Source of the DNA: Candidatus Babeliales bacterium
GTDB taxonomy: Bacteria > Babelota > Babeliae > Babelales > JANWKD01
Length of the DNA stretch: 64,000 nt
Reading direction: 5' to 3'
Assembly: GCA_963701665.1 (NCBI GenBank)
Contig: OY969622.1
Coordinates: 184,658-248,657 of the forward strand
The translations under genes were made by a program, and so were the position numbers. Of this stretch, positions 4,953-46,474 are shown piece by piece. The notes below the pieces were generated by a model. It was not told the origin of the DNA and ran no database searches. It saw only the letters and a list, made by a program, of their open reading frames with translations. How positions within the stretch are numbered: the first letter of the stretch is position 1; every line of letters starts with the position of its first letter.

Positions 4953-6088
4953 TTCATCATTGTCTGCACTATCTGTTTTATTTTAGTGCCAAAGTGCAGT
5001 TTTTCATAGTTAGCTAAGTTTTTTCGGATGGTATTTGCATATGCCGTTTGTGTGAGAATGCGCTCAACTGACTCTCGTAATTCTTTATAATTTCTTACTA
5101 CTTCACCAAAGCCATGATGTTCTACAAATGAATGATTAAACTTTTCCCAAAGTGGTGGTGTTGAAATGGCATCTATAATCATGGGGACTTGTTTATAGAG
5201 CGTTTCGCACAAGCTGACAGTGCCCGATTTTGTTATACACAGTGAAGCAATACTCATTAAATCTGCAATACGATCGGTTTGACTGATAATGGAACAAGAG
5301 ATATGTGATGGCAGGGGAAAAGGTTCAAGATATTTTCTGAGTGATTCATTGCTGCCTAAACAAGTGAGAATATGAACTGCAATAGGAATTTTTACTAATT
5401 CCTGCACTATGCTTATCATGCTTTGTGAACCAACAGCGCCCATTAATAAAAGAATGACAGGCTTATTTTCCGGCACACCAAAATCTTGCTTTATACATGA
5501 TATTTCCTGCGGAGCAAAAAACGATGGCTTTATCGGAAATCCAGTTAAGTAGATTTTTCTTTTGGAAATATTTGCACCTGAAAATGATTCTAAGATCAAT
5601 GAGTCATTAAAGGTAAGCGCGATTTTTACTTTTTCATCATGAGTATGTTTCATTGCATGGATAAAGGTTCTAACATCAAGGTCAGTAGGAATAACTAAAA
5701 AAGAGATTCCTGTTTTTTGGCAACTGGATTCAATGAGGCCATTAACGAGTGGCACCACGGAAATCACCATATCAGGATTTTTCTGTGCGATGAAATTATT
5801 CACTAATGTTTCAAAAAATGGACAACGAAAAAGGTGATGCGCGGCATAAGTAAGGATATTTATGAGCCATGTCCAACGTTTGCGCAGACATGAATTATAA
5901 AATGCTTCACCAGTATAACGTCCTTTACTCAGTATTTTAAAAGGATCAAGTACCCCAAGCACATCATCAAAAATATACGCAGTTTCTAAATCATAGTCTT
6001 GGCAAAGATATGCACTGATGGCTGCAGTTGCTGACAGATGACCGCCACCACCTTTGCTTGAAAAAATGAGAATCTTTTTGCGTTTCAA
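4949..6088 (-). CDS. GT28-family glycosyltransferase (monogalactosyldiacylglycerol synthase / UgtP-like)
   Basis: N-terminal KKILIFSSKGGGGHLSATAAI glycine loop and a C-terminal GT-B half (ITKSGTVSLCE), typical of the MGDG-synthase family. Confidence 0.7.
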   Translation of the reverse strand: MKRKKILIFSSKGGGGHLSATAAISAYLCQDYDLETAYIFDDVLGVLDPFKILSKGRYTGEAFYNSCLRKRWTWLINILTYAAHHLFRCPFFETLVNNFIAQKNPDMVISVVPLVNGLIESSCQKTGISFLVIPTDLDVRTFIHAMKHTHDEKVKIALTFNDSLILESFSGANISKRKIYLTGFPIKPSFFAPQEISCIKQDFGVPENKPVILLLMGAVGSQSMISIVQELVKIPIAVHILTCLGSNESLRKYLEPFPLPSHISCSIISQTDRIADLMSIASLCITKSGTVSLCETLYKQVPMIIDAISTPPLWEKFNHSFVEHHGFGEVVRNYKELRESVERILTQTAYANTIRKNLANYEKLHFGTKIKQIVQTMMN

Positions 6089-6242: not shown

Positions 6243-7700
6243 ATGAACGCATCATGTGCTCGCGTAGCACAACGTATTCTTTTCTTTATAGTAATGTTCC
6301 CTTTGTATGCTATTGAAGAGCGCTGGAATTGGAACGCCATTAATTGGAAAAGAACTATCACATTTCCTGCTAATTTTTTGTGGGGCACGGCCGATTCTGC
6401 ATTCCAAGTCGAGGGCATTATTTCAGCTGATGGGAGCATGATTCAAAATTCTTGGACCGTTTGGGAAAAGCAATTGGTACATCGCGACGGGCGCTATGAA
6501 CCGCGCTTTCATCCTGATAAACGAGCGGGTATCGCATGCGATCGCTGGAATTTATATAAGCAAGACGTACAGCTTATGAAAGAAATTGGCATTCAAGCAC
6601 ATCGATTCTCAATCGAGTGGACCAAAATCGAACCGCAACGAGGTGTTTTTGATGAAGCTGCAATGCAACATTATATCGATTACATTCAAGAACTTATTGA
6701 TAATGATATTGAACCCGTTCCAACATTTTTCCATCATTTATGGCCATTGTGGTTTGAATATCCAGAAGAAGTTAAACGGGGAACGAGGGGCATGGCGTTT
6801 GAAGACGCGCGCAATATAGCAGATTTTGTTGCATTTGCCGCGTACGTTTTCGCAACCATTTATAAACGCGTGCGAAATTCGCATAAAATTCGCTACTGGC
6901 TTACCTTTAACGAGCCGCTGGGCGAGGCACTCGCAGCCTATGTCTATCCGCTGTATCCACCGGGAAAAAGATACAGAATTCGGCAATGCGGGATCGTTGC
7001 AAAAAATATGCTCGATGCACATATCGCCATTTATGACGCGTGCAAAAAAATTAATCCTAACGCGCAAATTGGTTTTGCGCACTTGATGCACCCGCTGCAT
7101 CCTTATCATCCTTGGAATCCACTCGATTGGATACCCGCAAAAATATTTAATTATTTAATGAATCTTGCAGCAATTCGCTATTTTAAAACTGGTTATTTTC
7201 ATTGGATGTGGCTCTACCGAGGGTATAATCCCGATGCGCCGAAGAAGCTCGATTTCATTGGGGTGAATTATTATACGCATGGCATTATAAAAATGTTTAA
7301 AGAGGTAGTTCGGCCAGACGAAATATTAGCCGATGGCCCGGACGGTAAACATGGAAAACCTTTTTATCCTGAAGGGTTGTATTATTCACTCAAACAAGTT
7401 GCTCAATTAGGGATTCCTATCTTAGTTACAGAAAACGGGTGCGCCACCGATGATCCTGCTCTGCGGGAAGAGTATATAAAAAAACATTTGTATGTTATCG
7501 ATCGATGTCGACGCGAGGGCATGGATATTCGAGGGTATTTTTTCTGGACGCTTATGGATTGTTTTGGCTTTAATAGTGGCCAACATCGCAAACATGGCAT
7601 TTACGAAGTAAATTTTGAAACACAAGAAAGAACACTACGGCCTAGTTCTCAATATTTGCTTGATGTTATACAACGGCACAACGTGCTTTATAAAAAATAA
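6243..7700 (+). CDS. Glycoside hydrolase family 1 (beta-glucosidase-like)
   Basis: Acid/base motif TFNEP, nucleophile motif TENG, and the N-terminal FLWGTADSAFQVEG block. Confidence 0.85.
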   Translation: MNASCARVAQRILFFIVMFPLYAIEERWNWNAINWKRTITFPANFLWGTADSAFQVEGIISADGSMIQNSWTVWEKQLVHRDGRYEPRFHPDKRAGIACDRWNLYKQDVQLMKEIGIQAHRFSIEWTKIEPQRGVFDEAAMQHYIDYIQELIDNDIEPVPTFFHHLWPLWFEYPEEVKRGTRGMAFEDARNIADFVAFAAYVFATIYKRVRNSHKIRYWLTFNEPLGEALAAYVYPLYPPGKRYRIRQCGIVAKNMLDAHIAIYDACKKINPNAQIGFAHLMHPLHPYHPWNPLDWIPAKIFNYLMNLAAIRYFKTGYFHWMWLYRGYNPDAPKKLDFIGVNYYTHGIIKMFKEVVRPDEILADGPDGKHGKPFYPEGLYYSLKQVAQLGIPILVTENGCATDDPALREEYIKKHLYVIDRCRREGMDIRGYFFWTLMDCFGFNSGQHRKHGIYEVNFETQERTLRPSSQYLLDVIQRHNVLYKK

Positions 7701-7704
7701 AAAA

Positions 7705-7730
7705 AGCCCCAGGAATTTTTTCCTGGGGCT
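7705..7730. terminator. Rho-independent, probably bidirectional terminator
   Basis: Stem agccccagg / cctggggct flanked by an A-run and a T-run, between convergent genes. Confidence 0.6.
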
Positions 7731-7752
7731 TTTAACAATTAAAGTTCAAAAA

Positions 7753-8586
7753 TTATAATGCTTTGAGGTATGCAATTCGTTGATCCATGGTTGGATGAGT
7801 ACCGTACAATTCGCCTAATTTTGTGAAAGGCATCCAGAGCAGTTTACTTATCTTTGCTATGAATCGTTTAACAAAAAAACGAGAATCTGGATCTTCGGTG
7901 TGATCTTTAAAATTGACAAACAAATCGATTATGCCCTGCTTATCTTTCATCGTTTTCGCAGCTTGAACATCCGCCTCTTTTTCGCAGAACTGTGAAAATT
8001 GAGCATTAGCAAGTACAAAGCCACCAATGGCAGCGATATAACTTGCAAATGCAGCTACTTTTCTATTATCCGCAGGATTATCCATGACGTTCGAAGACCA
8101 ATTACAAATTGGTAATGTCAGTGCAACGGTGAGGAGGAAAAAGAGAACTTTTTTGGGAACATGATTACATTTGATATGCATAAGTTCGTGGCGAACGAGA
8201 CCTTGTTTTTCTCCATCTGATAAAGATCCAAGCCATTCTTCGCTTATAAAGAGCCAAGCGTGTGATTTGCCACCAAAAATAGATGGCACAACAAAGGCAT
8301 TCATACGTCCCATAGCGTGTTGTGCCATGTTACTCATGCCGCGCATTTCAATACAATAATCATCCATGCCTAATTCATGTATGATGGCATTAATGTACGT
8401 TTGCGTACTTTCTTTCAGGGCGTGAAATCCATACGATTCCCATCCCAAAAAATCGTAAACTTCTCTCATGGAGTCTTCATAATCCGTCAATGGTTTGCTT
8501 GGAACGGCTTCAGGGCGATTGGGATTTTTAGCAGCATGGGTTAGTGAAAAAAGGCAAAGGCCAATAATAAGAAAAATTTTTTTCAT
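7753..8586 (-). CDS. M48-family zinc metallopeptidase (HtpX/Ste24-like)
   Basis: HExxH motif (HELMHIKCNH), hydrophobic segments after the motif, and a C-terminal GTHPTMDQRIAYL block typical of M48. Confidence 0.7.
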   Translation of the reverse strand: MKKIFLIIGLCLFSLTHAAKNPNRPEAVPSKPLTDYEDSMREVYDFLGWESYGFHALKESTQTYINAIIHELGMDDYCIEMRGMSNMAQHAMGRMNAFVVPSIFGGKSHAWLFISEEWLGSLSDGEKQGLVRHELMHIKCNHVPKKVLFFLLTVALTLPICNWSSNVMDNPADNRKVAAFASYIAAIGGFVLANAQFSQFCEKEADVQAAKTMKDKQGIIDLFVNFKDHTEDPDSRFFVKRFIAKISKLLWMPFTKLGELYGTHPTMDQRIAYLKAL

Positions 8587-37641: not shown

Positions 37642-37962
37642 TTATTTAAATTTTTCTTTTTGATGAGACGGCTGAATTTTTTCGATTGAGTTTGGAATAG
37701 TCACTGCTCCCCAGGCCAGAAAGGTACCCAAAACACAGAGAGGAGCAATAGCACAACTCCCAAAAATAGGATAACCCCCAGCTGCCATTCCTGCGCCAGC
37801 GCAACCACTTATGCAAAGCTCACTAGCAATCTCAGAATCTTGGTCTGTGACACCAGAGCAATCCGGTAAGAGTCGTTGAAGCGTGTGAGGGGTATCCTTT
37901 TCCATGCAAAACGTTGTATTGATAGTTAACAAGAGGGCTAAAGCAAATGCTGCTTTCTTCAT
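37642..37962 (-). CDS. Small Cys/Gly-rich signal-peptide plus anchor protein (paralogue of 38115-38447)
   Basis: MKKAAFALALLLTINTTFCM-EKD... aligns with MKKLALVFIFLLTLNTTFCM-HNG... Confidence 0.5.
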   Translation of the reverse strand: MKKAAFALALLLTINTTFCMEKDTPHTLQRLLPDCSGVTDQDSEIASELCISGCAGAGMAAGGYPIFGSCAIAPLCVLGTFLAWGAVTIPNSIEKIQPSHQKEKFK

Positions 37963-38114
37963 AGCTGTTCCTTAGAGGTAATGGATACGTGAAAGAGAAA
38001 CATTTGTAGTGTACCGAAAAAAATTAATAAGAGAAGCTTTTAATCAGCAAATTGCGCGTGCTGAATGATCAAATTTTATCGGCTTTTCGTTTTAATGAAA
38101 CGCGCGCGTGATCA

Positions 38115-38447
38115 TTAGTCAGTTTTTTCTTTTTGATCAAACGAATCGTTTGCTTTGAAAGGTTCTCCTGTGCGTATGCCAAAAACTGTAAACGTACCAA
38201 TAGTAAACGCAAGTAGAGTTGCCAAAGGATTACCGAAAATGTGATGAGCGACACATGCTGCCGATGCGCCTCCGCCGCAACTTGTCGCATAGTCAACTGC
38301 TAACTCACAACAAGGATCATTATCATCTTCAATGACATCCGTGAAAATTGGGAGTAGAACTTTTTGATCGCGTGGGATTCCATTATGCATGCAAAAAGTT
38401 GTATTGAGCGTTAACAAAAATATAAAAACGAGCGCCAATTTTTTCAT
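38115..38447 (-). CDS. Small Cys/Gly-rich signal-peptide plus anchor protein (paralogue of 37642-37962)
   Basis: Start at MKKLALVF. Shared signal peptide, acidic patch and Cys/Gly-rich hydrophobic core. Confidence 0.5.
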   Translation of the reverse strand: MKKLALVFIFLLTLNTTFCMHNGIPRDQKVLLPIFTDVIEDDNDPCCELAVDYATSCGGGASAACVAHHIFGNPLATLLAFTIGTFTVFGIRTGEPFKANDSFDQKEKTD

Positions 38448-38703
38448 TATTAGTTCCATTGTATTGTATGAATGAACGTAATCACTTAGTAGTACAAAAA
38501 AAATAAAAATGAGAAAGCCTGAATTCTAATTCTAGCATTGCTTGGAAAGGAACTACAAGATGGTTTCAAACAACAAATCTTCACCTAGCGACATATTTTA
38601 TTATCCCAACCACTTACTTCTACGGGCTTAATTCTCCAAATGAGCCCATTGTGGAAACTGTTCTGTAACAAGCTGGATGACTAGAGATAGAGGAATTTCT
38701 AAT

Positions 38704-38961
38704 CTACAAAATGATTGAGTTATTTGTAATGTTTCCCAAAACATTGCAAGTAAGATTGATTTGAGTAAGATGCCTTAATTTTTGCTGAGTGAGCAAGTCA
38801 CGAATTTTGTCAAATTCTATCGGTAACAGGGAATCGCTTATAACTTCAATATTGCAAGTGTTCCCTTTAAAGATGCCATTGTCTTGGTTTTTTATTACAC
38901 CAGTAATAATATCGCTTGCATATTGTGGTGTGCATAACAGAGGTAATATAATTGGTCTCAT
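38704..38961 (-). CDS. Hypothetical protein
   Basis: ORF taken from the internal ATG at 38961, because the longer version overlaps the upstream ORF by 113 nt. No family recognised. Confidence 0.25.
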   Translation of the reverse strand: MRPIILPLLCTPQYASDIITGVIKNQDNGIFKGNTCNIEVISDSLLPIEFDKIRDLLTQQKLRHLTQINLTCNVLGNITNNSIIL

Positions 38962-39025
38962 TATGAATCCTTTCAAAAAAAATATTTTTCTCAATCTATA
39001 ACAAGTTTGAATTAAATTGAAGCTT

Positions 39026-39331
39026 CTAATTTGGCACCTTTTCCATAATGATATTAACTGCACAGTTAGCATGAACAATGCCTTCCGGAAAGTTTTTGCT
39101 GCGCAGTGCTTGTATGGCTTTATATAAAGATATAGCAATAGGTTTTCTATGAAAATTAAGAATGCAGGGGATTGGACTATCTAAATTGTTAATATCAATT
39201 GTTGTTAAGGGATTTTGAATGTTTGATGATGAATAAAATGTGATCTTATTTTCTCGAATATGTATCGCAAGCATAAATTCACCAGCGGGATCAGGCCAAT
39301 GAACAATAACCTTGTAATATATTAAATTCAT
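39026..39331 (-). CDS. Hypothetical protein
   Basis: 101-aa ORF; no family recognised. Confidence 0.3.
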   Translation of the reverse strand: MNLIYYKVIVHWPDPAGEFMLAIHIRENKITFYSSSNIQNPLTTIDINNLDSPIPCILNFHRKPIAISLYKAIQALRSKNFPEGIVHANCAVNIIMEKVPN

Positions 39332-39374
39332 ATATTTAAGAGGTAGTGATTTTTATAATCAAATAAGAGTAATA

Positions 39375-39617
39375 TTACCAAAATCTTTTTTTTGTGAAAG
39401 CTTTTCCAGCAAAAGTTTTTAGATAATGTTCAAATTCTTTCGCTTTGGATTTATCAACGAAACAAATATAAAGCACTAGCTCCCAAGGTCTATAGCTTGC
39501 TGTGTAAATGGAACCACCAGAATTATGGGTTTCAAGTCTTTGTTCTAAGTTTGTGGTATAACCTGCATACATTCGATCTGGGAACGCTGTTGATTTGATA
39601 AGATATACATAATACAT
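39375..39617 (-). CDS. GIY-YIG nuclease-superfamily protein (stand-alone catalytic domain)
   Basis: YYVYLIKS...MYAGYTTNLEQRLETHN fits the GIY...YxGxT..L..R...H pattern of small GIY-YIG proteins. Confidence 0.75.
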   Translation of the reverse strand: MYYVYLIKSTAFPDRMYAGYTTNLEQRLETHNSGGSIYTASYRPWELVLYICFVDKSKAKEFEHYLKTFAGKAFTKKRFW

Positions 39618-39639
39618 GGTTGAAATTAATGTTTTGCGA

Positions 39640-39785
39640 AGCCGTCCATTCTTCGCTTTAGGGTAAAACTTCGAAGTGTTATAAAGCTACGAAGGACAAT
39701 CTTCGCCTTCATTTTGCTGGCGACAGCCAATCGTAGCCGTAGGTCAACTTCGTAGTATTAACCCACGTAGGCGAAGATTGGCGTT
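39640..39785. repeat. Cluster of short inverted/direct cttcg-core motifs (structured repeat element)
   Basis: Arm pairs are gcgaag/cttcgc, ctacgaag/cttcgtag and caatcttcgcc/ggcgaagattg. Motif blocks resemble the extra internal segment of MITE copy C (16255-16330). Confidence 0.4.
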
Positions 39786-40024
39786 ACCTAGTGGATGCAA
39801 TCTTAAATCATGAGCTTGAATTTAGCACGGGAGTGCAAGTCATAAAAACCGTTTGTACTAGCTTAAAAATTGAGGTTAATAGGTAATAAAAGTCTAAACT
39901 ATTATTTACTAATCCTAATTACAGGTTAGTTTGCTAAAATAAATGATACTATTGAAAACTTCTCTATAAAGTAGTATACTATAGAGTAGTGATACTATTC
40001 TTCACCTGATGAGGCAAAACACTT

Positions 40025-40345
40025 ATGAGTAAATGGCAGATCGAATATTGGGATAGTTCAAAAGATAAAAGTTCCATTGAAAAATGGCTTGATGAATTGA
40101 CCAAAGACCAGCTTAAGTCGGTAGCCAAAGAATTAAGGATGCTAGAAGAAGCAGGTAACAAGTTAAAATTGCCACATAGTAGGCCTTTAGGTGATGGGCT
40201 TTTTGAATTACGAGAACGTAGGTATGGTTATAGAATTTATTACGGATTTTCTGGCAAACATTTAATTATTTTGCTTGCGGCCGGAAATAAAACAAGCCAA
40301 GAAAGAGATATGAAGATCGCTAGGGAGCGATTATCAAAACTATAA
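40025..40345 (+). CDS. Type II toxin, Gp49-like / HigB (RelE-ParE superfamily)
   Basis: 106 aa with ...LGDGLFELRERRYGYRIYYGF..., typical of the phage Gp49-like killer family. Followed 11 nt later by an HTH protein. Confidence 0.7.
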   Translation: MSKWQIEYWDSSKDKSSIEKWLDELTKDQLKSVAKELRMLEEAGNKLKLPHSRPLGDGLFELRERRYGYRIYYGFSGKHLIILLAAGNKTSQERDMKIARERLSKL

Positions 40346-40355
40346 GGAAAAGAAA

Positions 40356-40685
40356 ATGAGTGAAAAAAAAATTATGAAAACAAAAAGTTTTCAAAAATAT
40401 CTTGAAAAGCGTCTCGATAAAGATGAGATTGCTGAAATTGAAGAACAAGCTCTGTTAGAAATTAAAATTCTTCAATCTATGCAGAAGTCAATATCAGATG
40501 CTATGACTGATTATATGAACAAAAATAACATTGGCTTTAATGAGCTCGTTAGGCGCTTAGATACAAGTCCAGCACATGTAGCAAAAATACAAAAGGGCGA
40601 AGCTAATCTAACTGTATCTAGCTTGGCGCATATTTTGGCATTGCTCGGAAAAGAGCCGCAAGATGTTTTTAAAAACAAAAAATAA
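40356..40685 (+). CDS. XRE-family HTH antitoxin (HigA-like)
   Basis: C-terminal HTH (FNELVRRLDTSPAHVAKIQKGEANLTVSSLAHILALLG). Confidence 0.7.
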   Translation: MSEKKIMKTKSFQKYLEKRLDKDEIAEIEEQALLEIKILQSMQKSISDAMTDYMNKNNIGFNELVRRLDTSPAHVAKIQKGEANLTVSSLAHILALLGKEPQDVFKNKK

Positions 40686-40691
40686 CTTTTA

Positions 40692-40907
40692 ATGGCTAAA
40701 GAATTAAAAGAATTCAAACATTATTTTGCAGAAAAACTCAGAGATCCTGAGTATGCAATCGCATATCTTAATGAAGCATTAGCAGATGAGGATAAACGAG
40801 TTTTTTTAGTAGCGCTTAAAAATGTTATAGAAGCTTACGAAGAAAATAAAAGCCCTCTAGAAAAAAAGCTTATACTGAGGAAGTTTAAAGAAGATTATTT
40901 TCAATAA
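40692..40907 (+). CDS. Fragment-like ORF resembling the N-terminal region of HigA-family addiction-module antidote proteins
   Basis: The LRDPEYAIAYLNEALADEDKRVFLVALKNVIEA block is present, but no HTH domain follows. Confidence 0.4.
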   Translation: MAKELKEFKHYFAEKLRDPEYAIAYLNEALADEDKRVFLVALKNVIEAYEENKSPLEKKLILRKFKEDYFQ

Positions 40908-41122
40908 AATATAAAGCTCTACCTAATAAGCCTTTACAAAAAAATGATTTTTGTAATTCTTCTATTTTTACAGCTTGATATTTTTTTTTTGAAATTGACC
41001 ACCAATGATCACTAAGCTCAATGCTAATGCTATTACAGCTATTCTGAGGTTCGTGAGGATTACTTTCCATTCTACAAATAATACCTAAGCTTTTTTCAAT
41101 AAGCATTTGTAATTTATAATTC

Positions 41123-42051
41123 TTAGAGCCTATCTGAAAACTCTAAGTACTTGAAAAAATAAATAAAAAAAATAAAATCCCTCTTGAAGTTATCACACAA
41201 ACAAAAAGGGATTTTTTCATATGAAGCATTTAAATTACAAAGAAATGATACCATCAAAATATGTCATATCTGACGAACTTTTACAAGAATTTCATAACGT
41301 TATATCAACAAATATTCCACCAAGTAAAATAGGCCGGCCACGTTCTGATGATGGCCCATTAATTGCTGGGATATATTATTTGCTTAGAACAGGATGCCAA
41401 TGGGATGCGCTTCCCAAGTGCTTTGGCCCCGCAAAGACTGTTTATCATAGATTTAGAGAATTGGTCAAAGCTAATGCTTTTCAAAAAATTTGGAAATCGG
41501 TTTTAACGCACTATGATCGAACCAAAGGACTTTGTCTTGAAAATCAATCTATGGATTCATGTCATAAAAAGGTTCCGCTTGGAGGAGATAAAACAGGGAT
41601 CAGCCCGGTTGATAGAAGAAAATTAGGTTCAAAATTAAATCTTGTTGTAGAAGAATATGGACTACCTCTTGGTGCTACACTTGCAAGTGAAAATCGACAT
41701 GACACGCAATTATTTGTTTCCCTTGTCGATAATTTACAGCATCAAATTCCACAATCAAGAAATCATTATCTTCGAACCGATAAGGGCTTTGTTTCTAAAA
41801 AAAATAAGGCAGAAGCTATTAAAAGAAACTTCACGCCTATCATGCCATTAAAAAAACCAAAAAATAAACCTCGAGTTACGCAAAAAAAAGATCCAATACG
41901 ATGGGTCGTTGAAAGAACATTTTCTTGGATGAATCGATTCAGGCGTGTTTTTATTCGTTATGACAAGCTATCTAAAAATTTTCTTGGATTAGTTCAATTC
42001 GCTTGTCTAGTCATTGTTTTCAGAAAAATTTAGTTTTCAGACAGGCTCTAA
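41123..42051 (+). mobile_element. IS5-family insertion sequence, about 929 bp
   Basis: 20-bp terminal inverted repeats ttagagcctAtctgaaaact (41123-41142) and agttttcagaCaggctctaa (42032-42051), with one mismatch. Single DDE transposase ORF. Confidence 0.75.
41221..42033 (+). CDS. IS5-family DDE transposase
   Basis: DUF4096-like N-terminus (GRPRSDD...YYLLRTGCQWDALP...TVYHRF) and a DDE_Tnp_1 C-terminus (RTDKGF, VERTFSWMNRFRRVFIRYDK). Confidence 0.85.
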   Translation: MKHLNYKEMIPSKYVISDELLQEFHNVISTNIPPSKIGRPRSDDGPLIAGIYYLLRTGCQWDALPKCFGPAKTVYHRFRELVKANAFQKIWKSVLTHYDRTKGLCLENQSMDSCHKKVPLGGDKTGISPVDRRKLGSKLNLVVEEYGLPLGATLASENRHDTQLFVSLVDNLQHQIPQSRNHYLRTDKGFVSKKNKAEAIKRNFTPIMPLKKPKNKPRVTQKKDPIRWVVERTFSWMNRFRRVFIRYDKLSKNFLGLVQFACLVIVFRKI

Positions 42052-42426
42052 TTATGTTCTTGGATTAATGGTAGGAGCATTAATGTGCCATTGCACTGTT
42101 CCGTTAACACCAGGAGCTGGTTTTGTAGTAAGCTCAATAGTGGCATCATCACATATTATTACAGGTACTTTTCCTTCATTATTAAAATCTCCACCATCGG
42201 TATTATACTTAGTAATATCAGTTCCTGGTTCCCCTTCAAAAAGCCTTATAAATTTAGCACATCGATTTCCACCTGCATTTAATTGTGCAGTTTTCCCCGG
42301 CTGGATAGCATCCTTGGTAACTAATGTTTCCACAAACTTATTACGATTATCTCTTCTGTATACATCGATGGCAACTTTTACAGAGCGACTACCGCTATTT
42401 TTAATAGTAAAATTTGCCCCATGCAT
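42052..42426 (-). CDS. Hypothetical small secreted protein; N-terminal signal peptide appears frameshifted
   Basis: The ORF starts within ...SGMHG. An ATG at 42473 encodes MKTIVIVLYY* in another frame, and one base of shift would give MKTIVIVL-LLLATFSGMHG... The stop codon abuts the IS5 right IR. Confidence 0.4.
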   Translation of the reverse strand: MHGANFTIKNSGSRSVKVAIDVYRRDNRNKFVETLVTKDAIQPGKTAQLNAGGNRCAKFIRLFEGEPGTDITKYNTDGGDFNNEGKVPVIICDDATIELTTKPAPGVNGTVQWHINAPTINPRT

Positions 42427-42676
42427 TCCAGAGAAAGTTGCTAATAATAAAGTACGATAACAATTGTTTTCATTGCAATCATGCTTTTTCCCTTAAATTT
42501 TAATAATTAGTTCTTTTTATTATTTATAGAATATCAATATTTATAGGTTGCCATAAAAATAGTACAAAGAGCAATGATTTATATTGCATTTTCCAACTGT
42601 TATTATTGCATTGTTTCATGATAAACTATGAAACATTTTAATAGATCGTCTGGAATCCCTAATAGAGATACTCATC

Positions 42677-44131
42677 ATGAAAGCAATTTTAATCGCCCGT
42701 GTAAGCACAGAAGAACAGAAAGAAGCTGGCAATTCTCTTCCAGCGCAAGTCGCTCGTCTTGAGAAATATTGCCAAGTCAGAAATTTTCCCATCATTAAAA
42801 GTTTTAGCTTTGATGAGAGTGGCTATAAAAACCAACGAGAAGCATTCGATGCAATTTTAGATTTTGTACTCGAGCAACGTGAGAAAGTAGCCGTGTGTTG
42901 CGACAAAGTCGATCGCCTTTCTCGTAATATATTCGATAAACGAGTGTCTACGCTCTATGAAAAAGCATTGCAAGATCAGCTAGAGCTGCATTTTGTTTCT
43001 GATGGACAAGTTATTAATAGTCGTATTTCAGCCGTTGAAAAGTTCCAATTTGGGATTAGTTTAGGATTGGCAAAATATTATTCTGATGCCATCAGCGATA
43101 ACGTTAAAAGAGCCATAGAGCAAAAATTGCGCAAAGGCGAGTGGATTGCCAAAGCGCCCTATGGGTATAAAAATATTCTCCTAGGGGATAAAAAAGATAT
43201 CTGTGTTGATGAGTATGCAAAGCACATAATACACAAAGTATTTGAACTCTACGCAACGGGAGCCTTTTCTTTTGAGCTTTTATGCAAAAAATTAAAAGAT
43301 GATCATAACATTGTGTGGAGTGTAAGTTATATTGATAAAGTTTTTAACAACCATTTTTATTATGGTGTCATGGTTGTTAACGGCCAACAATATCCTCATA
43401 AATATCCTCCCCTAATTTCTCAAGCACTTTTTGAAAAGGTTCAGCTTATGAAAAAAAGTCTCAGCAAAAAACAAAGCAGATATGCAGGAAAGCCTTTTCA
43501 CTATCGCGGACTTTTGCGTTGTGATGATTGTGGATTTGCCATTACGCCAGAAAAGCACAAGGGTCATGTCTATTATCATTGCACTGAATTCAAGGGCAAG
43601 CATGGGGCAAAATGGCTGCGAGAAGAGGCAATCACCGAACAACTAGGAGCTATCTTTAAAAGTTTGCAAATGCCTGAAGAAGTCTTAAAACAAATCACTG
43701 AGACATTAACTGAAGTTCATGAAAATAAGATTGCCTTCCAAACAAAACAATTCGATACGCTCACTAGGGAACAAAAAGAAGTCACAAAAATGATGGATAA
43801 TTTATACCTTGATAAACTCAAAGGGAGAATTACTGAGAGCGCGTATGACAGATTTTACCAAAAATTCAGAGATCAGATCACGGATATTTCTATTAGATTA
43901 GAGCAATTACAAGAAGCAGAAGATCACTACTATATTACGGTAAAATACCTACTAGAGCTGACAACGCGTGCCTATGACCTTTTTATGAGTTCGGAAGTGG
44001 AGGAAAAAAGGCAATTAATCAAACTTGTACTATCGAACTTAAGGCTAAAAGGTGAAACACTCGTCTACGACGCTCATCAGCCGTTTGATTTGATACTAAA
44101 AAGTACCGATCAACAACTTTGGCGTCCCTAA
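42677..44131 (+). CDS. Large serine recombinase (integrase/resolvase family)
   Basis: The N-terminal catalytic domain has AILIARVSTEEQ, the Ser nucleophile motif. A recombinase domain, a Cys-rich zinc-ribbon (CDDCGFAIT...YYHCTEF) and a coiled-coil tail follow. Confidence 0.85.
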   Translation: MKAILIARVSTEEQKEAGNSLPAQVARLEKYCQVRNFPIIKSFSFDESGYKNQREAFDAILDFVLEQREKVAVCCDKVDRLSRNIFDKRVSTLYEKALQDQLELHFVSDGQVINSRISAVEKFQFGISLGLAKYYSDAISDNVKRAIEQKLRKGEWIAKAPYGYKNILLGDKKDICVDEYAKHIIHKVFELYATGAFSFELLCKKLKDDHNIVWSVSYIDKVFNNHFYYGVMVVNGQQYPHKYPPLISQALFEKVQLMKKSLSKKQSRYAGKPFHYRGLLRCDDCGFAITPEKHKGHVYYHCTEFKGKHGAKWLREEAITEQLGAIFKSLQMPEEVLKQITETLTEVHENKIAFQTKQFDTLTREQKEVTKMMDNLYLDKLKGRITESAYDRFYQKFRDQITDISIRLEQLQEAEDHYYITVKYLLELTTRAYDLFMSSEVEEKRQLIKLVLSNLRLKGETLVYDAHQPFDLILKSTDQQLWRP

Positions 44132-44196
44132 GGGGATTCGAACCCCTGTTTTCGCCGTGAAAGGGCGATGTCCTAGACCAGCTAGACGATAGGGAC
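44120..44196 (-). tRNA. tRNA-Glu (anticodon UUC), CCA encoded
   Basis: The minus strand reads GTCCCTATCGTCTAGCTGGTCTAGGACATCGCCCTTTCACGGCGAAAACAGGGGTTCGAATCCCCTTAGGGACGCCA. It folds as a full cloverleaf with anticodon loop CTTTCAC. Confidence 0.95.
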
Positions 44197-44312
44197 GTTG
44201 ATATCAAAGGAGGATTTTTTCTTAATTTTGCAGGTATTTTAAAGGCCTTAGCAGGGAGGCTGGCGGAGCCAGGCGTAGTTTGCCGAGCCGGAAGGCCCGG
44301 ATAAACGAAGAC

Positions 44313-44388
44313 TGGTGAGCCGCGATGGATTCGAACCATCGACCCACAGCTTAAAAGGCTGTTGCTCTACCAACTGAGCTAGCGGCTC
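44313..44388 (-). tRNA. tRNA-Lys (anticodon UUU), CCA encoded
   Basis: The minus strand reads GAGCCGCTAGCTCAGTTGGTAGAGCAACAGCCTTTTAAGCTGTGGGTCGATGGTTCGAATCCATCGCGGCTCACCA, with anticodon loop CTTTTAA. Confidence 0.95.
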
Positions 44389-44543: not shown

Positions 44544-45122
44544 ATGCTTAAACAAATTTTTGTAGCATTCTTATCTTTAACTAACTTGTCATATGTTCCT
44601 GATACCAAAAGAATTTTGGATCATCATGAAGTCCATGATCAGCAAAAACATTTCAATCATGACAGTTTTCTTACGTCTTGGAACGATGCTAGCTTTAATA
44701 TGGAAAGCGCGATGAGCATTGCTTTTGAGAGGTATAAAAATAATCTGATAGAGCAACAAGAAGCGAAAACAGATAACTATGATACAACAAGAGAAGAACA
44801 AGCCTTAGAAAAATTAGCATCTGAAAATTTAGTTCCGGGTACTATTCGTGTGCGATACCATAATGGACGAGGATATATAAGCTCGTATCTTCAATTAGAA
44901 AATAGTTATTGTTGGCATTATGGTGACTGCTTTCCTACATTGTATCTGCACAATGAAAAAAAATTATCCAATCAAGCAGATACATTAAAAACATTAATTT
45001 CTGCTGAAAAAAAACCAAAAGTGACGGTATATTTAAGCCGTAAACGTCCTTTACAATTTTCCCAATCTAAAAAAATCTTATATTCAATAGATTTAGATTT
45101 TACAAAATCCATCGAGTGTTAA
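44544..45122 (+). CDS. Hypothetical protein
   Basis: 192-aa ORF with a weak N-terminal hydrophobic segment. Confidence 0.4.
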   Translation: MLKQIFVAFLSLTNLSYVPDTKRILDHHEVHDQQKHFNHDSFLTSWNDASFNMESAMSIAFERYKNNLIEQQEAKTDNYDTTREEQALEKLASENLVPGTIRVRYHNGRGYISSYLQLENSYCWHYGDCFPTLYLHNEKKLSNQADTLKTLISAEKKPKVTVYLSRKRPLQFSQSKKILYSIDLDFTKSIEC

Positions 45123-46474
45123 ATTAAACTTTGGAATTCTTGCCCATCAAATTCTTGAACGCCGTGGTCCACCTGTAGAGTAAGCGTTGATGGCGAATGA
45201 TTAGCGCGTGCAAAGCTTTCAAATGCGCCCAATGGGTTTGTATGCCATCCAACTTTTATAGCAGTGTATCCTGTTGTATTTTCAGGTTTCTCAAATTTAT
45301 GTCTTTTTTGTTGTAGTATGCCTAAAAGCGTGTGGATGTATGCTACTTGATTTTGTTGATGATTGATTGAACAGAGCAGAGAAATAAAATTATCAATCTG
45401 TCTCATCATTTTTTTTGATTTTTGCGTAGGCAATGCTGTGTCATCAATCTTTGCGTCTCTTTGTGCAATGAAAATAGCATTCATATCGCTAAAATCTATC
45501 TTGGTTGCATGTTGCTGATTAAGCCCCTTGTTCAAGAAAACAATATAGGCTTCTTTTGCTTGATGGAGCAAGTTTGGTGCAGTGATTTGTTCTTTATTGC
45601 CAGGATCAATGGCAATAACTAAATGATTTTTTATGGGATTAATTTGTTTAAATTCGAAAAATCCTGAGGTATCTGAAAAAACGTTGATGTTGGTTGTGAT
45701 GCCATTATTTTGAAGATGTGTTCGAAATTCATGAAACAATGAACGGCATTCATTATTTTCGCTATATGCTTTATCAAAGCAATATAATCTTTGATGTTGA
45801 TACCCTCTTTTGCCAAGGATATAGGAAAGCAAATATTCGCTTAAAAGCAGGCCACTTCCAAAATACTCGCCCGAAAGAGGTTGATGAGCGGTGCACTGAT
45901 CAGAAGGAAATAATGTTGGTAGTTTTGAAATGACTTTGAGTGTACAACCAATTTTATCGTATAAGGTTGCTTTTGTGCACGTACATGTCGCTAGTTGGCG
46001 TTCTTCGGCTGGTAGATGAAATTTTTGAAACAATAATTCAACGCAATAATCTTTAATAGTTTCTTGTATTTCTCGAGAGTCTAGGGTGATGTCTGGATAA
46101 CGATCGTACAAGGGTACGATTTTTCTGAATTGTTTCTGTGCGAATGTTTTATAAAAAATATGTGCTAAAAATAGTTTTGTTGTTTCAGGATCATCTTGAA
46201 ACAACGGTAATAATCCATTCGCTTTAATTTCTTTTTTTTTGAATGATAGGATGTTCTTATCATCAACATCTTCTAGTGCATACTTTTTAAAAGGGGCTTG
46301 CGCAACCATAGAGGCGCGCAATTTTTTATAGAGCATATCGACTGATCGTATGCCCTTGTTATATTCGCAGCAAGTCTTACATTCGGGTTCAGACTCCATG
46401 CTTTTAAGTGATGCTGTAAACAATACAATAAGAATTAATACGTGGGATGCGAAAAGTAGAGGTGTTTTTTTCAT
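45119..46474 (-). CDS. Hypothetical secreted protein
   Basis: 451-aa ORF with signal peptide ...ASLKSM-ESE. No family recognised. Confidence 0.5.
   Translation of the reverse strand: MKKTPLLFASHVLILIVLFTASLKSMESEPECKTCCEYNKGIRSVDMLYKKLRASMVAQAPFKKYALEDVDDKNILSFKKKEIKANGLLPLFQDDPETTKLFLAHIFYKTFAQKQFRKIVPLYDRYPDITLDSREIQETIKDYCVELLFQKFHLPAEERQLATCTCTKATLYDKIGCTLKVISKLPTLFPSDQCTAHQPLSGEYFGSGLLLSEYLLSYILGKRGYQHQRLYCFDKAYSENNECRSLFHEFRTHLQNNGITTNINVFSDTSGFFEFKQINPIKNHLVIAIDPGNKEQITAPNLLHQAKEAYIVFLNKGLNQQHATKIDFSDMNAIFIAQRDAKIDDTALPTQKSKKMMRQIDNFISLLCSINHQQNQVAYIHTLLGILQQKRHKFEKPENTTGYTAIKVGWHTNPLGAFESFARANHSPSTLTLQVDHGVQEFDGQEFQSLI

Follow-up and report, generated by a model that had tools for sequence, protein, structure and literature searches.

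The analysed window, a stretch of 64,000 nucleotides, contains an integrative element of 4341 bp (4.3 kb) at positions 39779-44125, delimited by an exact 6-bp flanking repeat, TGGCGT, which corresponds to tRNA nt 71-76. The element very probably sits in the last six bases of tRNA-Glu, inserted there by a large serine recombinase (LSR) whose own gene crosses the insertion site. The proposal as a whole, a 4.3-kb LSR element at the tRNA-Glu 3' end with attP within the LSR ORF, is held with high confidence. A preliminary description had suggested an LSR-driven integrative element that uses the tRNA-Glu 3' end for attachment, and this is supported by empty sites, the 6-bp repeat, and circular forms; the extent proposed there for the island (38460-44196) is replaced by 39779-44125, and its left boundary shifts. 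The features considered are the following.

39375-39617, minus strand: GIY-YIG ORF, 80 aa, outside the element (PF01541, E 3e-14)
39618-39778: B arm of attL (host side), a GC-rich hairpin block ending ...gtaggcgaagat
39779-39784, plus strand: attL core TGGCGT, left copy of the 6-bp direct repeat
39779-39886, plus strand: P' arm and orphaned tail ORF, WRYLVDAILNHELEFSTGVQVIKTVCTSLKIEVNR*
40025-40345, plus strand: Gp49/HigB-like (RelE/ParE family) toxin (PF05973, E 3e-14; TIGR02683, E 8e-15, under its cut-off)
40356-40685, plus strand: HTH (Cro/C1-type) putative antitoxin (PF13443, E 3e-5)
40692-40907, plus strand: addiction-module antidote gene fragment (PF21716, E 7e-4, under its cut-off)
41123-42051, plus strand: IS5-family insertion sequence inside the element, transposase at 41221-42033
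42052-42426, minus strand: orf124, inside the element
42677-44131, plus strand: LSR, integrated tail-less form, 484 aa
44090-44119, plus strand: P arm of attR, final conserved LSR codons ...PFDLILKSTDQQL (consensus from 55 loci)
44120-44125, plus strand: attR core TGGCGT, tRNA-Glu nt 76-71 antisense
within 44120-44196, minus strand: B' arm, the tRNA-Glu acceptor 3' strand and T arm
44120-44196, minus strand: tRNA-Glu(UUC), intact (ARAGORN and Rfam)
44313-44388: tRNA-Lys(UUU) (ARAGORN and Rfam)

The LSR ORF ends with TGG CGT CCC TAA, so that 44120-44131 are common to the LSR gene and to the CCA end, discriminator, and acceptor 3' strand of the tRNA. The earlier observation that the tRNA-Glu 3' end is read antisense in these final 12 nt (codons for W, R, P, and stop) was confirmed by ARAGORN/Rfam and the ORF coordinates. 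The protein contains the Resolvase (PF00239, E 6e-22) and Recombinase (PF07508, E 5e-11) domains, and Zn_ribbon_recom (PF13408) scored 24.3 bits, slightly below its cut-off of 25.3. The AF2 model of a homologue, P0081, consists of a catalytic domain, a recombinase domain, zinc-ribbon hairpins, and a long coiled coil. Homologues of the LSR (2194 at E <= 1e-10) form a family of more than 2000 protein clusters in Dependentiae and Patescibacteria, and nearly all of them end in W followed by the translation of a tRNA 3' end. An antisense tRNA lies at the end of the LSR gene in 58 of the 80 genome loci (Asp 13, Asn 13, Glu 13, Gln 8, Arg 11), and TGG=CCA is in frame in 54/80. A distantly related LSR (31% identical) from Legionella adelaidensis NCTC12735 also overlaps a tRNA with W=CCA in frame, there tRNA-Asn. 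Judged from the 80 loci, the overlap of LSR and tRNA is far above chance. It is hardly credible that a host recombinase or invertase adjoins the tRNA and reaches into it through a late stop codon by coincidence: adjacency is all that speaks for this, and the in-frame W=CCA across five tRNAs, together with the empty sites, 6-bp repeats, and circles, argues against it.

The left boundary was established by comparison with an unoccupied site. Window positions 39375-39784 align with positions 3850-4272 of locus L106 (81% identity over 423 nt), a moderately distant relative in which the GIY-YIG/GC-rich sequence directly abuts an unoccupied tRNA-Glu, and the homology stops exactly at the core TGGCGT. 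With slashes marking the core, attB of L106 reads ..cgtaggcgaagat/TGGCGT/cccc(tRNA), attL of the window ..cgtaggcgaagat/TGGCGT/tacctag, and attR of the window ..caacaactt/TGGCGT/ccctaag; the identity between attL and attR covers exactly 6 nt, plus 1 nt leftward. The second, partial copy of the tRNA-Glu 3' end that had been expected at the distal boundary was thus found as TGGCGT at 39779-39784, whereas a 27-nt search with 3 mismatches found no second copy of the tRNA 3' end because the repeat is only 6 bp long. The GIY-YIG gene and the GC-rich repeat belong natively to the DNA downstream of tRNA-Glu (as the B arm of attB) and are not cargo; both had been described correctly as a GIY-YIG protein with a structured repeat, but the L106 empty site places them outside the element. 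Dependentiae tRNA-Glu ends were also sampled via the host gene mgtE (53 loci): 13 are abutted by an LSR gene, 25 by a GC-rich block of the same kind, which adjoins the CCA, and 15 by other sequence. Relatives with an unoccupied tRNA-Glu, as L106 and this sampling indicate, do exist. A serine recombinase next to a tRNA gene had been called uncommon, which holds for the literature but not for these lineages, since about one quarter of the sampled Dependentiae sites are occupied. It counts against the proposal that the empty site of L106 belongs to a relative at some distance and that in the closest relative by MgtE, L081 (92% aa), the locus is rearranged, with no tRNAs nearby.

An alternative is that 38460-44196 is a single larger unit in which the GIY-YIG gene, the orphan ORFs, and the gene for a secreted protein are cargo. 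An APH-like (N-terminus) pseudogene fragment at 38600-38710 is 80% identical to a stretch inside the LSR element of L041, so older insertions may extend leftward. However, the GIY-YIG gene and GC-rich block flank empty tRNA-Glu genes in many relatives, the L106 homology ends at the core, and left of 39375 no att-like junction or LSR fragment was found; the larger unit is therefore improbable. The two orphan ORFs and the secreted gene (38115-38459), formerly listed as island genes, lie outside 39779-44125 and are at most debris of older insertions.

The second line of evidence for the 4.3-kb element comes from its far end. Following the left repeat, 108 nt continue the reading frame of the W codon and code for a conserved peptide of 33 aa (consensus LVDxFRNGEIxFxxSLxxIQTVF), which is also the C-terminus of the full-length 516-aa LSR P0081. 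Since the left-end peptide is the tail of a full-length LSR, attP is located within the integrase ORF, and on integration tRNA-antisense codons take the place of the tail. The P0081 gene resides on a free circle of 12,648 bp, recovered from three assemblies with different break points and terminal overlaps of 141 nt and 30 nt; an excised circle, which had been suggested as a check, is thus known from assemblies for family members. Other elements carry the tail peptide at their left end too (~15 loci), and the window's tail region (39779-39886) is 89% identical to positions 3473-3580 of L001, a locus with a related element at the same site. Identity in the tail differs by codon position (0.51/0.65/0.40), also beyond the first 27 nt, and at the level of sequence the tail is evidently under coding selection. 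A role for the tail may be supposed.

In the proposed integration cycle, the LSR ORF of the free circle would cross attP, with the conserved body of the protein ending in ...Q-x-W. The TGG (W) and the next codon would form a 6-bp core that exactly matches the final six bases of the target tRNA (CCA, discriminator, and nt 72-71), and about 33 more codons after the core would complete the ~516-aa protein. LSR dimers would bind attP, in which the P arm is the last ~30 nt of the conserved ORF and the P' arm the first stretch of DNA that codes for the tail, as well as attB, in which the B arm is the DNA right downstream of the tRNA (here the GC-rich hairpin block) and the B' arm is the acceptor 3' strand and the T arm with TTCGAA. 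Strand exchange would take place at a predicted 2-bp crossover at core positions 5-6 (tRNA nt 72-71; 44124-44125 in the window). After integration, the LSR gene would terminate in tRNA-antisense codons (here W-R-P-stop) and the tail-coding DNA would be left at the far end of the element (39779-39886), while the tRNA would remain unchanged, since both sites share the same core. The P arm consensus of 55 loci is ..GAT.GTCAACTA/TGG and the att consensus is GTCAACTA-N10-TAGTTGAC, centred at core nt 5-6. The same position is the top-ranked dyad centre of 13 attP sites (8.7/24 matches vs 6.0 +/- 1.1); the dyad of the window's own attP, which counts against the proposal, is weak (5/8 in the core inverted repeat), and the predicted centre was not picked out when this site was scanned by itself. 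In the consensus lines, P' motifs are set 4-5 bp further out from the centre than the B' motifs they resemble. The exact crossover dinucleotide and the recognition of half-sites should be regarded as putative.

The same geometry was observed across the family. In 12/12 elements with both ends mapped (4.3-10.9 kb), an exact, tRNA-specific 6-bp repeat is present (TGGCGT, TGGCGG, TGGCTG, or TGGTGC), and in 10/12 the identity ends after 6 nt. Copies within one genome part right after the core: L019 and L020 share 99.7% identity over 5.8 kb as far as TGGCATG, and L022 and L023 are alike as far as TGGCGT. At some loci, P-P' junctions were found inside chromosomes (L027, L029, and L066); to fit the proposal, these would need tandem arrays or non-canonical events. 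The LSR might instead act as a transposase of loose specificity that accepts the CCA end of any tRNA, reading generic features such as CCA and the T-loop TTCGAA. Family members use five tRNA species, several copies occupy different tRNAs within one genome, only TGG and the T-loop are common to all B' arms, and users of Glu, Arg, Gln, and Asp are intermixed in the neighbour-joining tree. That tree is, however, poorly resolved, and in 12/12 elements the three bases that complete the core after TGG are those of the tRNA in question, so that every element is fitted to its own target; loose specificity is unlikely. The family is, in all probability, a large and undescribed group of small episomes that enter tRNA genes at the extreme 3' end via the LSR; no description of it was found in the literature searched.

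The cargo of the window's element had been largely recognized beforehand. The HigB/HigA-like toxin–antitoxin module with its antidote fragment was confirmed within the element (the antidote match being weak), as was the IS5-family element, with a transposase matching NF033580 (199.6 bits), DDE_Tnp_1, and DUF4096 and terminal inverted repeats of 35 nt (41123-41157 and 42017-42051). Similar toxin/HTH pairs recur in related elements, and the antidote fragment has 92% nt identity to L081. The product of orf124 has no match in Pfam, NCBIfam, or PHROG, and no recombination directionality factor was identified. An 8-bp inverted repeat noted in the LSR leader (42612-42635) exists, right after a promoter-like site (42578-42606), and is partly kept in L001, but it is not statistically notable, as the window holds 41 such repeats vs ~20 in Markov simulations.

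It is very improbable that the element is a prophage remnant that has a serine recombinase as integrase by chance. The LSR has a match to phrog_95, an integrase family in PHROG (E 8e-64), and Gp49 is a "phage-derived" family; however, neither the window's element nor the clustered ORFs of related loci include structural or lysis genes, no relatives were found among 2.9 million IMG/VR contigs, the best annotated phage match is 32% identical, and the circular member carries primase-helicase and ankyrin genes and no virion genes.

The element lacks a 373-aa partner gene (fam1), common to most relatives, as well as a replication gene. The missing partner suggests that the window copy is probably a reduced element, yet its LSR, tail ORF, and both junctions are intact. 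The window copy could be an immobile relic, integrated as proposed and now fixed and vertically inherited, with an LSR ORF that has merely not decayed. The missing partner and primase and the internal IS5 fit such a relic. So does L001, in which flank and LSR are similarly diverged from the window (87% nt), and so do L034 and L035, which share site and neighbours at host-like divergence. Against it stand the 484-codon LSR ORF, the 35-codon tail ORF, and the intact junctions, as well as the tail itself, which is useless while integrated and yet conserved with L001 and coding in its substitution pattern family-wide. The cargo of L001 is wholly different, which argues for turnover, while its position at the same site fits either long vertical residence or repeated integration. 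A relic is possible but doubtful, and the window copy may still be mobile.

In the window's family, as in the LSRs of phages and ICEs (phiC31, Bxb1, TP901-1, A118/LI), a long coiled coil accompanies the Resolvase, Recombinase, and zinc-ribbon domains, the integrase gene adjoins attP, and the att sites are short, with few bp of identity, an imperfect dyad about a central dinucleotide, and P half-sites longer than B. In contrast to them, the window's family targets tRNA gene 3' ends and has attP inside the integrase ORF, so that integration alters the C-terminus; sequence similarity is low, the sole PDB match being the TP901-1 catalytic domain (E 4.5e-4) and the best annotated phage or plasmid matches being at most 32% identical. 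The SSV1-type (fusellovirus) integrases of Sulfolobus also have attP within the integrase gene and a tRNA gene as target, and integration splits the ORF. SSV1 is archaeal and uses a tyrosine recombinase and a ~44 bp identity segment, and its gene is cut into two substantial parts, whereas the window's element has a serine recombinase and a 6-bp core and detaches only the last ~33 codons. SCCmec inserts at the very 3' end of a conserved gene and leaves that gene functional, and its Ccr recombinases are LSRs as well (NCBIfam CcrB and CcrA match the window's LSR at E 4e-24 and 8e-21, far under their cut-offs); its target, rlmH/orfX, is however protein-coding, the ccr genes lie within the cassette away from att, and ORF and att do not overlap. 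In mycobacteriophages such as BPs and Brujita (integration-dependent immunity), attP lies inside a phage ORF, and the protein encoded after integration has an altered C-terminus and other properties. The gene split in those phages is that of the repressor, and a tyrosine recombinase serves as integrase; in the window's element the split gene is the serine integrase itself. Tycheposons of Prochlorococcus resemble the family as small integrative elements beside tRNA genes, often with replication genes of their own, and in 27/937 an LSR replaces the tyrosine recombinase; their hosts differ, and in the portion of that source consulted an ORF-spanning attP is unreported (bioRxiv 10.1101/2020.12.28.424599). 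Tyrosine-integrase islands in tRNA/tmRNA genes (Islander/TIGER; sublocation classes of Williams, 2002) likewise have the integrase gene adjoining the tRNA, restore the tRNA 3' end, and accumulate elements and relics in tandem by the tRNA, but their displaced tRNA fragment is ~15-50+ bp long, compared to the 6-bp repeat here, and the enzyme family is another one. Serine integrases were not known to target tRNA genes according to the Islander paper (PMC4383910). The targeting of tRNA genes, formerly credited to the tyrosine integrase family alone, is here very probably the work of a large serine integrase.

The large serine recombinase (LSR) gene of the window runs into the adjoining tRNA gene. 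Both tRNAs were located by ARAGORN, with Rfam concordant, and the LSR ORF was found to end with the codons tgg cgt ccc taa, its last 12 nt being the antisense of the tRNA-Glu CCA, the discriminator, and part of the acceptor 3′ strand. This overlap, already reported in the preliminary description, was verified by ORF calls and both tRNA searches. The integrase gene thus lies at the tRNA-proximal end of the proposed element, and tRNA-Glu is intact.

Features of the locus (window coordinates unless another locus is named)
39375-39778: GC-rich hairpins and GIY-YIG gene; comparable regions at 7687-8080 of locus L116 and 3856-4272 of locus L106
39779-39784: TGGCGT, left copy of the direct repeat
39779-39886: tail ORF (108-nt block), conserved peptide in frame with TGG
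39952-39980: promoter-like site ahead of the HigB/HigA-like pair
42677-44131 (+): LSR, 484 aa
44120-44125: TGGCGT, right copy of the direct repeat
44120-44196 (-): tRNA-Glu(UUC)
44260-44312: second GC-rich hairpin region
44313-44388 (-): tRNA-Lys(UUU)

The domain search placed the integrase in the serine and not the tyrosine class: it contains a resolvase catalytic domain (PF00239, E 6e-22, residues 3-156) and a Recombinase domain (PF07508, E 5e-11), and no tyrosine recombinase ORF was found within 39779-44125. The zinc ribbon PF13408 is marginal in the window protein (24.3 bits vs a cut-off of 25.3) but appears in the precomputed Pfam annotation of nearly every homologue; among 24 homologues R8, S10, and R80/R83, as well as the zinc-ribbon cysteines C282, C285, and C302, are invariant. 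In the AF2 model of P0081, a 516-aa homologue, beta-hairpins (289-303) precede two helices (335-382 and 388-414, pLDDT about 77-87), and a coiled-coil insertion in the zinc-ribbon domain is predicted. The window LSR matches the PHROG integrase family phrog_95, and its sole PDB sequence match is the TP901-1 catalytic domain. No relative above 32% identity was found in annotated phage and plasmid records, and IMG/VR gave no relatives at all. Judged by its domains and predicted fold, the LSR is a large serine integrase, though a distant one. LSRs catalyse recombination between attP and attB, and excision requires a directionality factor; no such factor was identified here.

The locus was sampled through the host gene mgtE; the order mgtE, tRNA-Lys, tRNA-Glu is conserved in Dependentiae. 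The LSR is absent from L106 and from many other loci of this order, so the presence/absence comparison proposed in the preliminary description did reveal unoccupied tRNA-Glu sites in relatives. About a quarter of the sampled sites are occupied: 13 of 53 assessable tRNA-Glu 3′ ends adjoin an LSR, 25 a GC-rich hairpin block, beyond which a GIY-YIG ORF of 80 aa often lies, and 15 other sequence. The block, which in these 25 Dependentiae loci lies directly at the CCA, is built of CGAAG/CTTCG units with a terminal gcgaag(a/g)(c/t); in the window it also adjoins tRNA-Lys. The GIY-YIG gene and hairpins of the window (39375-39784) are 81% identical over 423 nt to the empty-site flank of L106, the match ending within the last bases of the tRNA.

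Junctions compared (flank, core, flank)
attB, L106: ..cgtaggcgaagat then TGGCGT then ccccactgag
attL, window 39779: ..cgtaggcgaagat then TGGCGT then tacctagtgg
attR, window 44120: ..tcaacaactt then TGGCGT then ccctaagggg

Set side by side, these sequences delimit the element as 39779-44125, with 4341 bp between the repeats, and the GIY-YIG/hairpin block is native flank downstream of tRNA-Glu, not cargo. The integrative reading of an island at the tRNA-Glu 3′ end is supported, with limits corrected from those first suggested (38460-44196). The expected second copy of the tRNA 3′ end survived in a shorter form: a search with 27 nt and up to 3 mismatches found none since the real repeat, TGGCGT (tRNA-Glu nt 71-76), has just 6 bp. 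This repeat is validated by its flanks, not by its length; a generic repeat search round the locus returned nothing but the ends of IS5 and repeats unrelated to the element. Locus L081, the nearest relative when judged by MgtE, is rearranged and was of no use as an empty site. Locus L001, with an LSR 95% identical to that of the window, shares with it only the LSR-tRNA block and a 108-nt block at 39770-39877.

Within 39779-44125 the order is tail ORF, HigB/HigA-like pair, antidote fragment, IS5, orf124 (function unassigned), and LSR. A Gp49/HigB-like toxin (PF05973, E 3e-14) is followed after a 10-nt gap by an HTH antitoxin (PF13443, E 3e-5), forming a putative HigB/HigA-type toxin-antitoxin pair, and the IS5 transposase (NF033580, 199.6 bits vs a cut-off of 110) is accompanied by 35-nt inverted repeats, 77% complementary. 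Profile and repeat searches confirmed these accessory features, the antidote fragment, and the GIY-YIG gene with its GC-rich hairpins as first described; the 8-bp inverted repeat noted in the LSR leader also exists, but it is not unusual, as the window holds 41 such repeats vs about 20 expected. In related elements toxin-antitoxin pairs and a SpoVG-like gene recur, and a 373-aa protein, fam1, is encoded upstream of the LSR in 58 of 81 loci, often immediately adjacent. Its roughly 990 homologues are all annotated as hypothetical. Sequence searches of fam1 against Pfam, PHROG, NCBIfam, and the PDB gave nothing, nor did a PDB fold search, and its only fold matches are four unnamed viral proteins in BFVD (TM about 0.48); a guess that it is a rolling-circle Rep found no support. 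The window element, without fam1, is a reduced one. That it is an immobile relic is considered unlikely; with LSR, tail ORF, and junctions intact, this reduced copy may still be excisable.

The same anatomy recurs elsewhere. Each of the 12 elements with both ends mapped (4.3-10.9 kb) carries an exact, tRNA-specific 6-bp repeat (TGGCGT for Glu, TGGCGG for Asp, TGGCTG for Gln, TGGTGC for Arg); identity stops right after 6 nt in 10 of them, and the leftward extension is 0-3 nt. The family consensus of the P arm (55 loci) ends in GAT.GTCAACTA directly before TGG, that of the P′ arm reads TGGCGg.accTAGTTGAC.., and together they form an 8-bp inverted repeat with a 10-nt spacer, centred on core positions 5-6. 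Among about 65 possible dyad centres, core nt 5-6 ranked first in 13 reconstructed attP sites (8.7 of 24 matches vs 6.0 ± 1.1, z about 2.5), which is suggestive, not decisive, support for crossover there. When the attP and attB reconstructed for the window were scanned for dyads, the core did not stand out; the window site is weak, and only the family consensus marked the core as dyad centre. In the consensus lines the P′ arm is similar to the B′ arm, on the tRNA side, with motifs 4-5 bp farther out: TTGAC lies at +13 in P′ vs CTGAC at +8 in B′, and TTCAGGAAC at +21 in P′ vs the T-loop (C/T)TCGAAC at +17 in B′. From LSR-DNA structures, such an offset is expected between attP and attB half-sites. 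The zinc ribbon would presumably contact TTCGAA of the T-loop on the B′ side and, on the P′ side, a motif like TTCAGGAA; the att anatomy appears to fit a serine integrase. Crossover is predicted at tRNA nt 72-71 (core nt 5-6), in which case the element would donate the discriminator and CCA that the tRNA carries after integration, both identical to the originals. The predicted circle junction is ...caacaactt TGGCGT tacctagtgg..., and the restored host site would read ...gtaggcgaagat TGGCGT ccctaagggg.... Because the crossover would fall in the last acceptor-stem bases beside the universal CCA, one or two core base changes may be enough to retarget the element to another tRNA; such retargeting, proposed as tentatively as the integrase switch described below, would explain why five tRNA species are used and why the family occurs in at least three phyla.

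The DNA past the left repeat, in frame with TGG, encodes the conserved peptide W-x-x-L-V-D-x-F-R-N-G-E-I-x-F-x-x-S-L-x-x-I-Q-T-V-F..., and the frames are mostly open for ~32-35 codons. Left ends were sought with an early regular expression, TLRTFxW, which found few, and the motif LVDxFRNG was then derived from junctions of GC-rich ends with TGG. Mean pairwise identity of 14 tails by codon position is 0.51, 0.65, and 0.40, and past the first 27 nt the same pattern is kept (0.49, 0.63, and 0.38), indicating that the tail is under protein-coding selection and does not serve solely as a DNA site; Rfam recognised no RNA family in the block. The 516-aa P0081 ends in the same tail, for which AF2 gave no confident structure (pLDDT < 50 from residue 480). 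This protein is encoded on a 12,648-bp circle recovered as circular permutations in three independent assemblies (L161, L162, and L163) with differing break points and k-mer terminal overlaps of 141 and 30 nt. The circle carries an 813-aa Toprim_3/DUF3987 primase-helicase, a 372-aa protein, and two ankyrin-repeat proteins. In the circle LSR and tail form one uninterrupted ORF; in integrated copies the two lie apart. This comparison places attP inside the integrase ORF, and since the tail is shared by the circle and the left ends, the episome would make a full-length LSR across attP. Integration would then detach the last ~33 codons, and a few tRNA-antisense codons would take their place. It is tentatively proposed, with a confidence somewhat short of even, that the integrase has its own switch, thrown by integration, between the 516-aa tailed and the tail-less form. 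Activity or directionality may differ between the two; the tail could, for example, be required for the attP x attB reaction or block attL x attR. If the switch is true, a separate directionality factor would not be the sole control of direction.

A protein search gave 2194 LSR homologues at E <= 1e-10, and the best 120 of them are 65-99% identical, many being named Babeliales or Dependentiae. Almost all homologues end in ...W followed by RP, RG, RS, CAR, LGRKDSNLR, RPQGDSNPC, or similar, strings that correspond to the translated reverse complement of tRNA 3′ ends (TGG is CCA, DSN(P/L) the T-loop). In 80 loci taken from GTDB species genomes (Dependentiae, many Patescibacteria, and some MAGs labelled Gammaproteobacteria), several LSR copies per genome occur; an antisense tRNA (Asp, Asn, Glu, Gln, or Arg) lies at the LSR end in 58, and in 54 of these the W codon coincides in frame with the CCA. 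The overlap characterises the family and is no accident of this one locus. Same-genome copies part after the first 6-7 nt of the tRNA; identity between L022 and L023 runs to TGGCGT, and L019 and L020 are 99.7% identical over 5.8 kb, ending at TGGCATG. Rfam gave no RNA-family match at the non-tRNA junctions L029, L038, and L062. A second clade of LSRs, distant from the first, adjoins the tRNA-Glu CCA in L112, L150, L157, and L084, with remnants in L146/L147; its coding end is ...aaaactggaaa(a/c) before TGG, and the proteins of L112, L150, and L157 are 23-32% identical to the window LSR. In five Patescibacteria loci (L040, L043, L045, L053, and L075), the tRNA-Asn downstream of the LSR is uncalled by ARAGORN; its 3′ half is retained, and past the anticodon-stem region the genes diverge into a common '...cttggactatctca' sequence, which may be an intron or other insertion.

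The tRNA-proximal position seems to be occupied repeatedly. In L116, 99.9% identical to L114 as far as the tRNA, a GIY-YIG/hairpin unit (~395 nt) occupies precisely the space that separates the CCA from the C-terminal remnant of an LSR, and in L001 it lies between an old LSR fragment (52 codons) and the attL of the current element. The unit looks like a second mobile unit at the same spot that seems to re-occupy the tRNA-proximal position and regenerate the B-type flank, i.e., that downstream of the tRNA, which would permit successive insertions. Other observations fit such accretion. In L027, 94 nt of the LSR 3′ end are perfectly repeated (5706-5799 and 11359-11452), and attP-like (P-P′) junctions occur within the chromosomes of L027, L066 (818-946), and L029 (5296 and 11447), a few kb upstream of the tRNA junction or replacing it, which suggests tandem arrays or non-canonical recombination of incoming attP with resident attL/attR. 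An APH/phosphotransferase-like N-terminal pseudogene fragment at 38600-38710 (-) of the window (..TEQFPQWAHLEN*..), 80% identical to 3365-3466 of L041 inside an LSR element, lies left of the GIY-YIG gene and is probably what remains of an earlier insertion. Farther out, a 79-nt direct repeat (35744-35822 and 37998-38076, 85% identity) and two small ORFs near it (37642-37962 and 38115-38459; 106 and 114 aa) with similar N-termini MKK..L..L(T/L)(I/L)NTTFCM look like a local duplication in the host flank. On the other side, ORFs of 192 aa (+) and 451 aa (-) with no Pfam match lie between tRNA-Lys and mgtE (44544-46474), and mgtE is nearer the tRNAs in nine other Dependentiae loci (334-1309 nt past the LSR end vs 2449 nt in the window).

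The mechanism is an ordinary serine-integrase reaction at an unusual site, the last six tRNA bases, with attP in the integrase gene, and the family is apparently abundant and undescribed. Island finders that rely on a displaced tRNA fragment are blind to a 6-bp repeat, so the family has probably been missed in genomes of Dependentiae, Patescibacteria, and Legionella-like bacteria. How serine integrases control directionality is an unsettled question of practical importance, on which a state-dependent C-terminus could bear; attP within the integrase ORF together with a selected, episome-only tail is a simple natural way of tying integrase activity to the state of the element. Compact serine integrases with well-defined natural ~50-bp sites in highly conserved RNA genes and many natural core variants are also appealing as an orthogonal toolkit for genome engineering and for genetic work on symbionts that are hard to grow.

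The model is open to direct testing since a distant member occurs in the cultured Legionella adelaidensis NCTC12735. Its 'plasmid 24' (252461-253960, L164) encodes a 31%-identical LSR, a RefSeq 'recombinase family protein', with the ...KPFD...W geometry, in which W is the tRNA-Asn CCA in frame within a 30-nt overlap; upstream lie a tyrosine recombinase, an HTH protein, and a SpoVG-family gene. The LSR of Neochlamydia plasmid pS13 (L165) lies about 20 nt from tRNA-Tyr. In the literature searched, the LSR family, targeting of tRNA ends by LSRs, and an attP spanning an LSR ORF are undescribed, which is not proof of absence. SSV1-type split integrases, and those of some mycobacteriophages with integration-dependent truncation, are tyrosine recombinases. 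The logic of the element resembles both: as in SSV1-type elements attP lies within the integrase ORF, but the enzyme is a serine recombinase. The tycheposon preprint (bioRxiv 10.1101/2020.12.28.424599) mentions 27 LSR-bearing elements, in passages that do not give their att sites. According to the Islander paper (PMC4383910), serine integrases were not known to target tRNA genes, and the tRNA islands catalogued there all have tyrosine-family integrases. The window element shares with such islands an integrase beside an intact tRNA, a distal repeat of the tRNA 3′ end (here 6 bp), and empty sites in relatives, and differs from them in its serine recombinase, which removes the asymmetry by which tRNA genes had been thought targets of tyrosine integrases only (PMC4383910).
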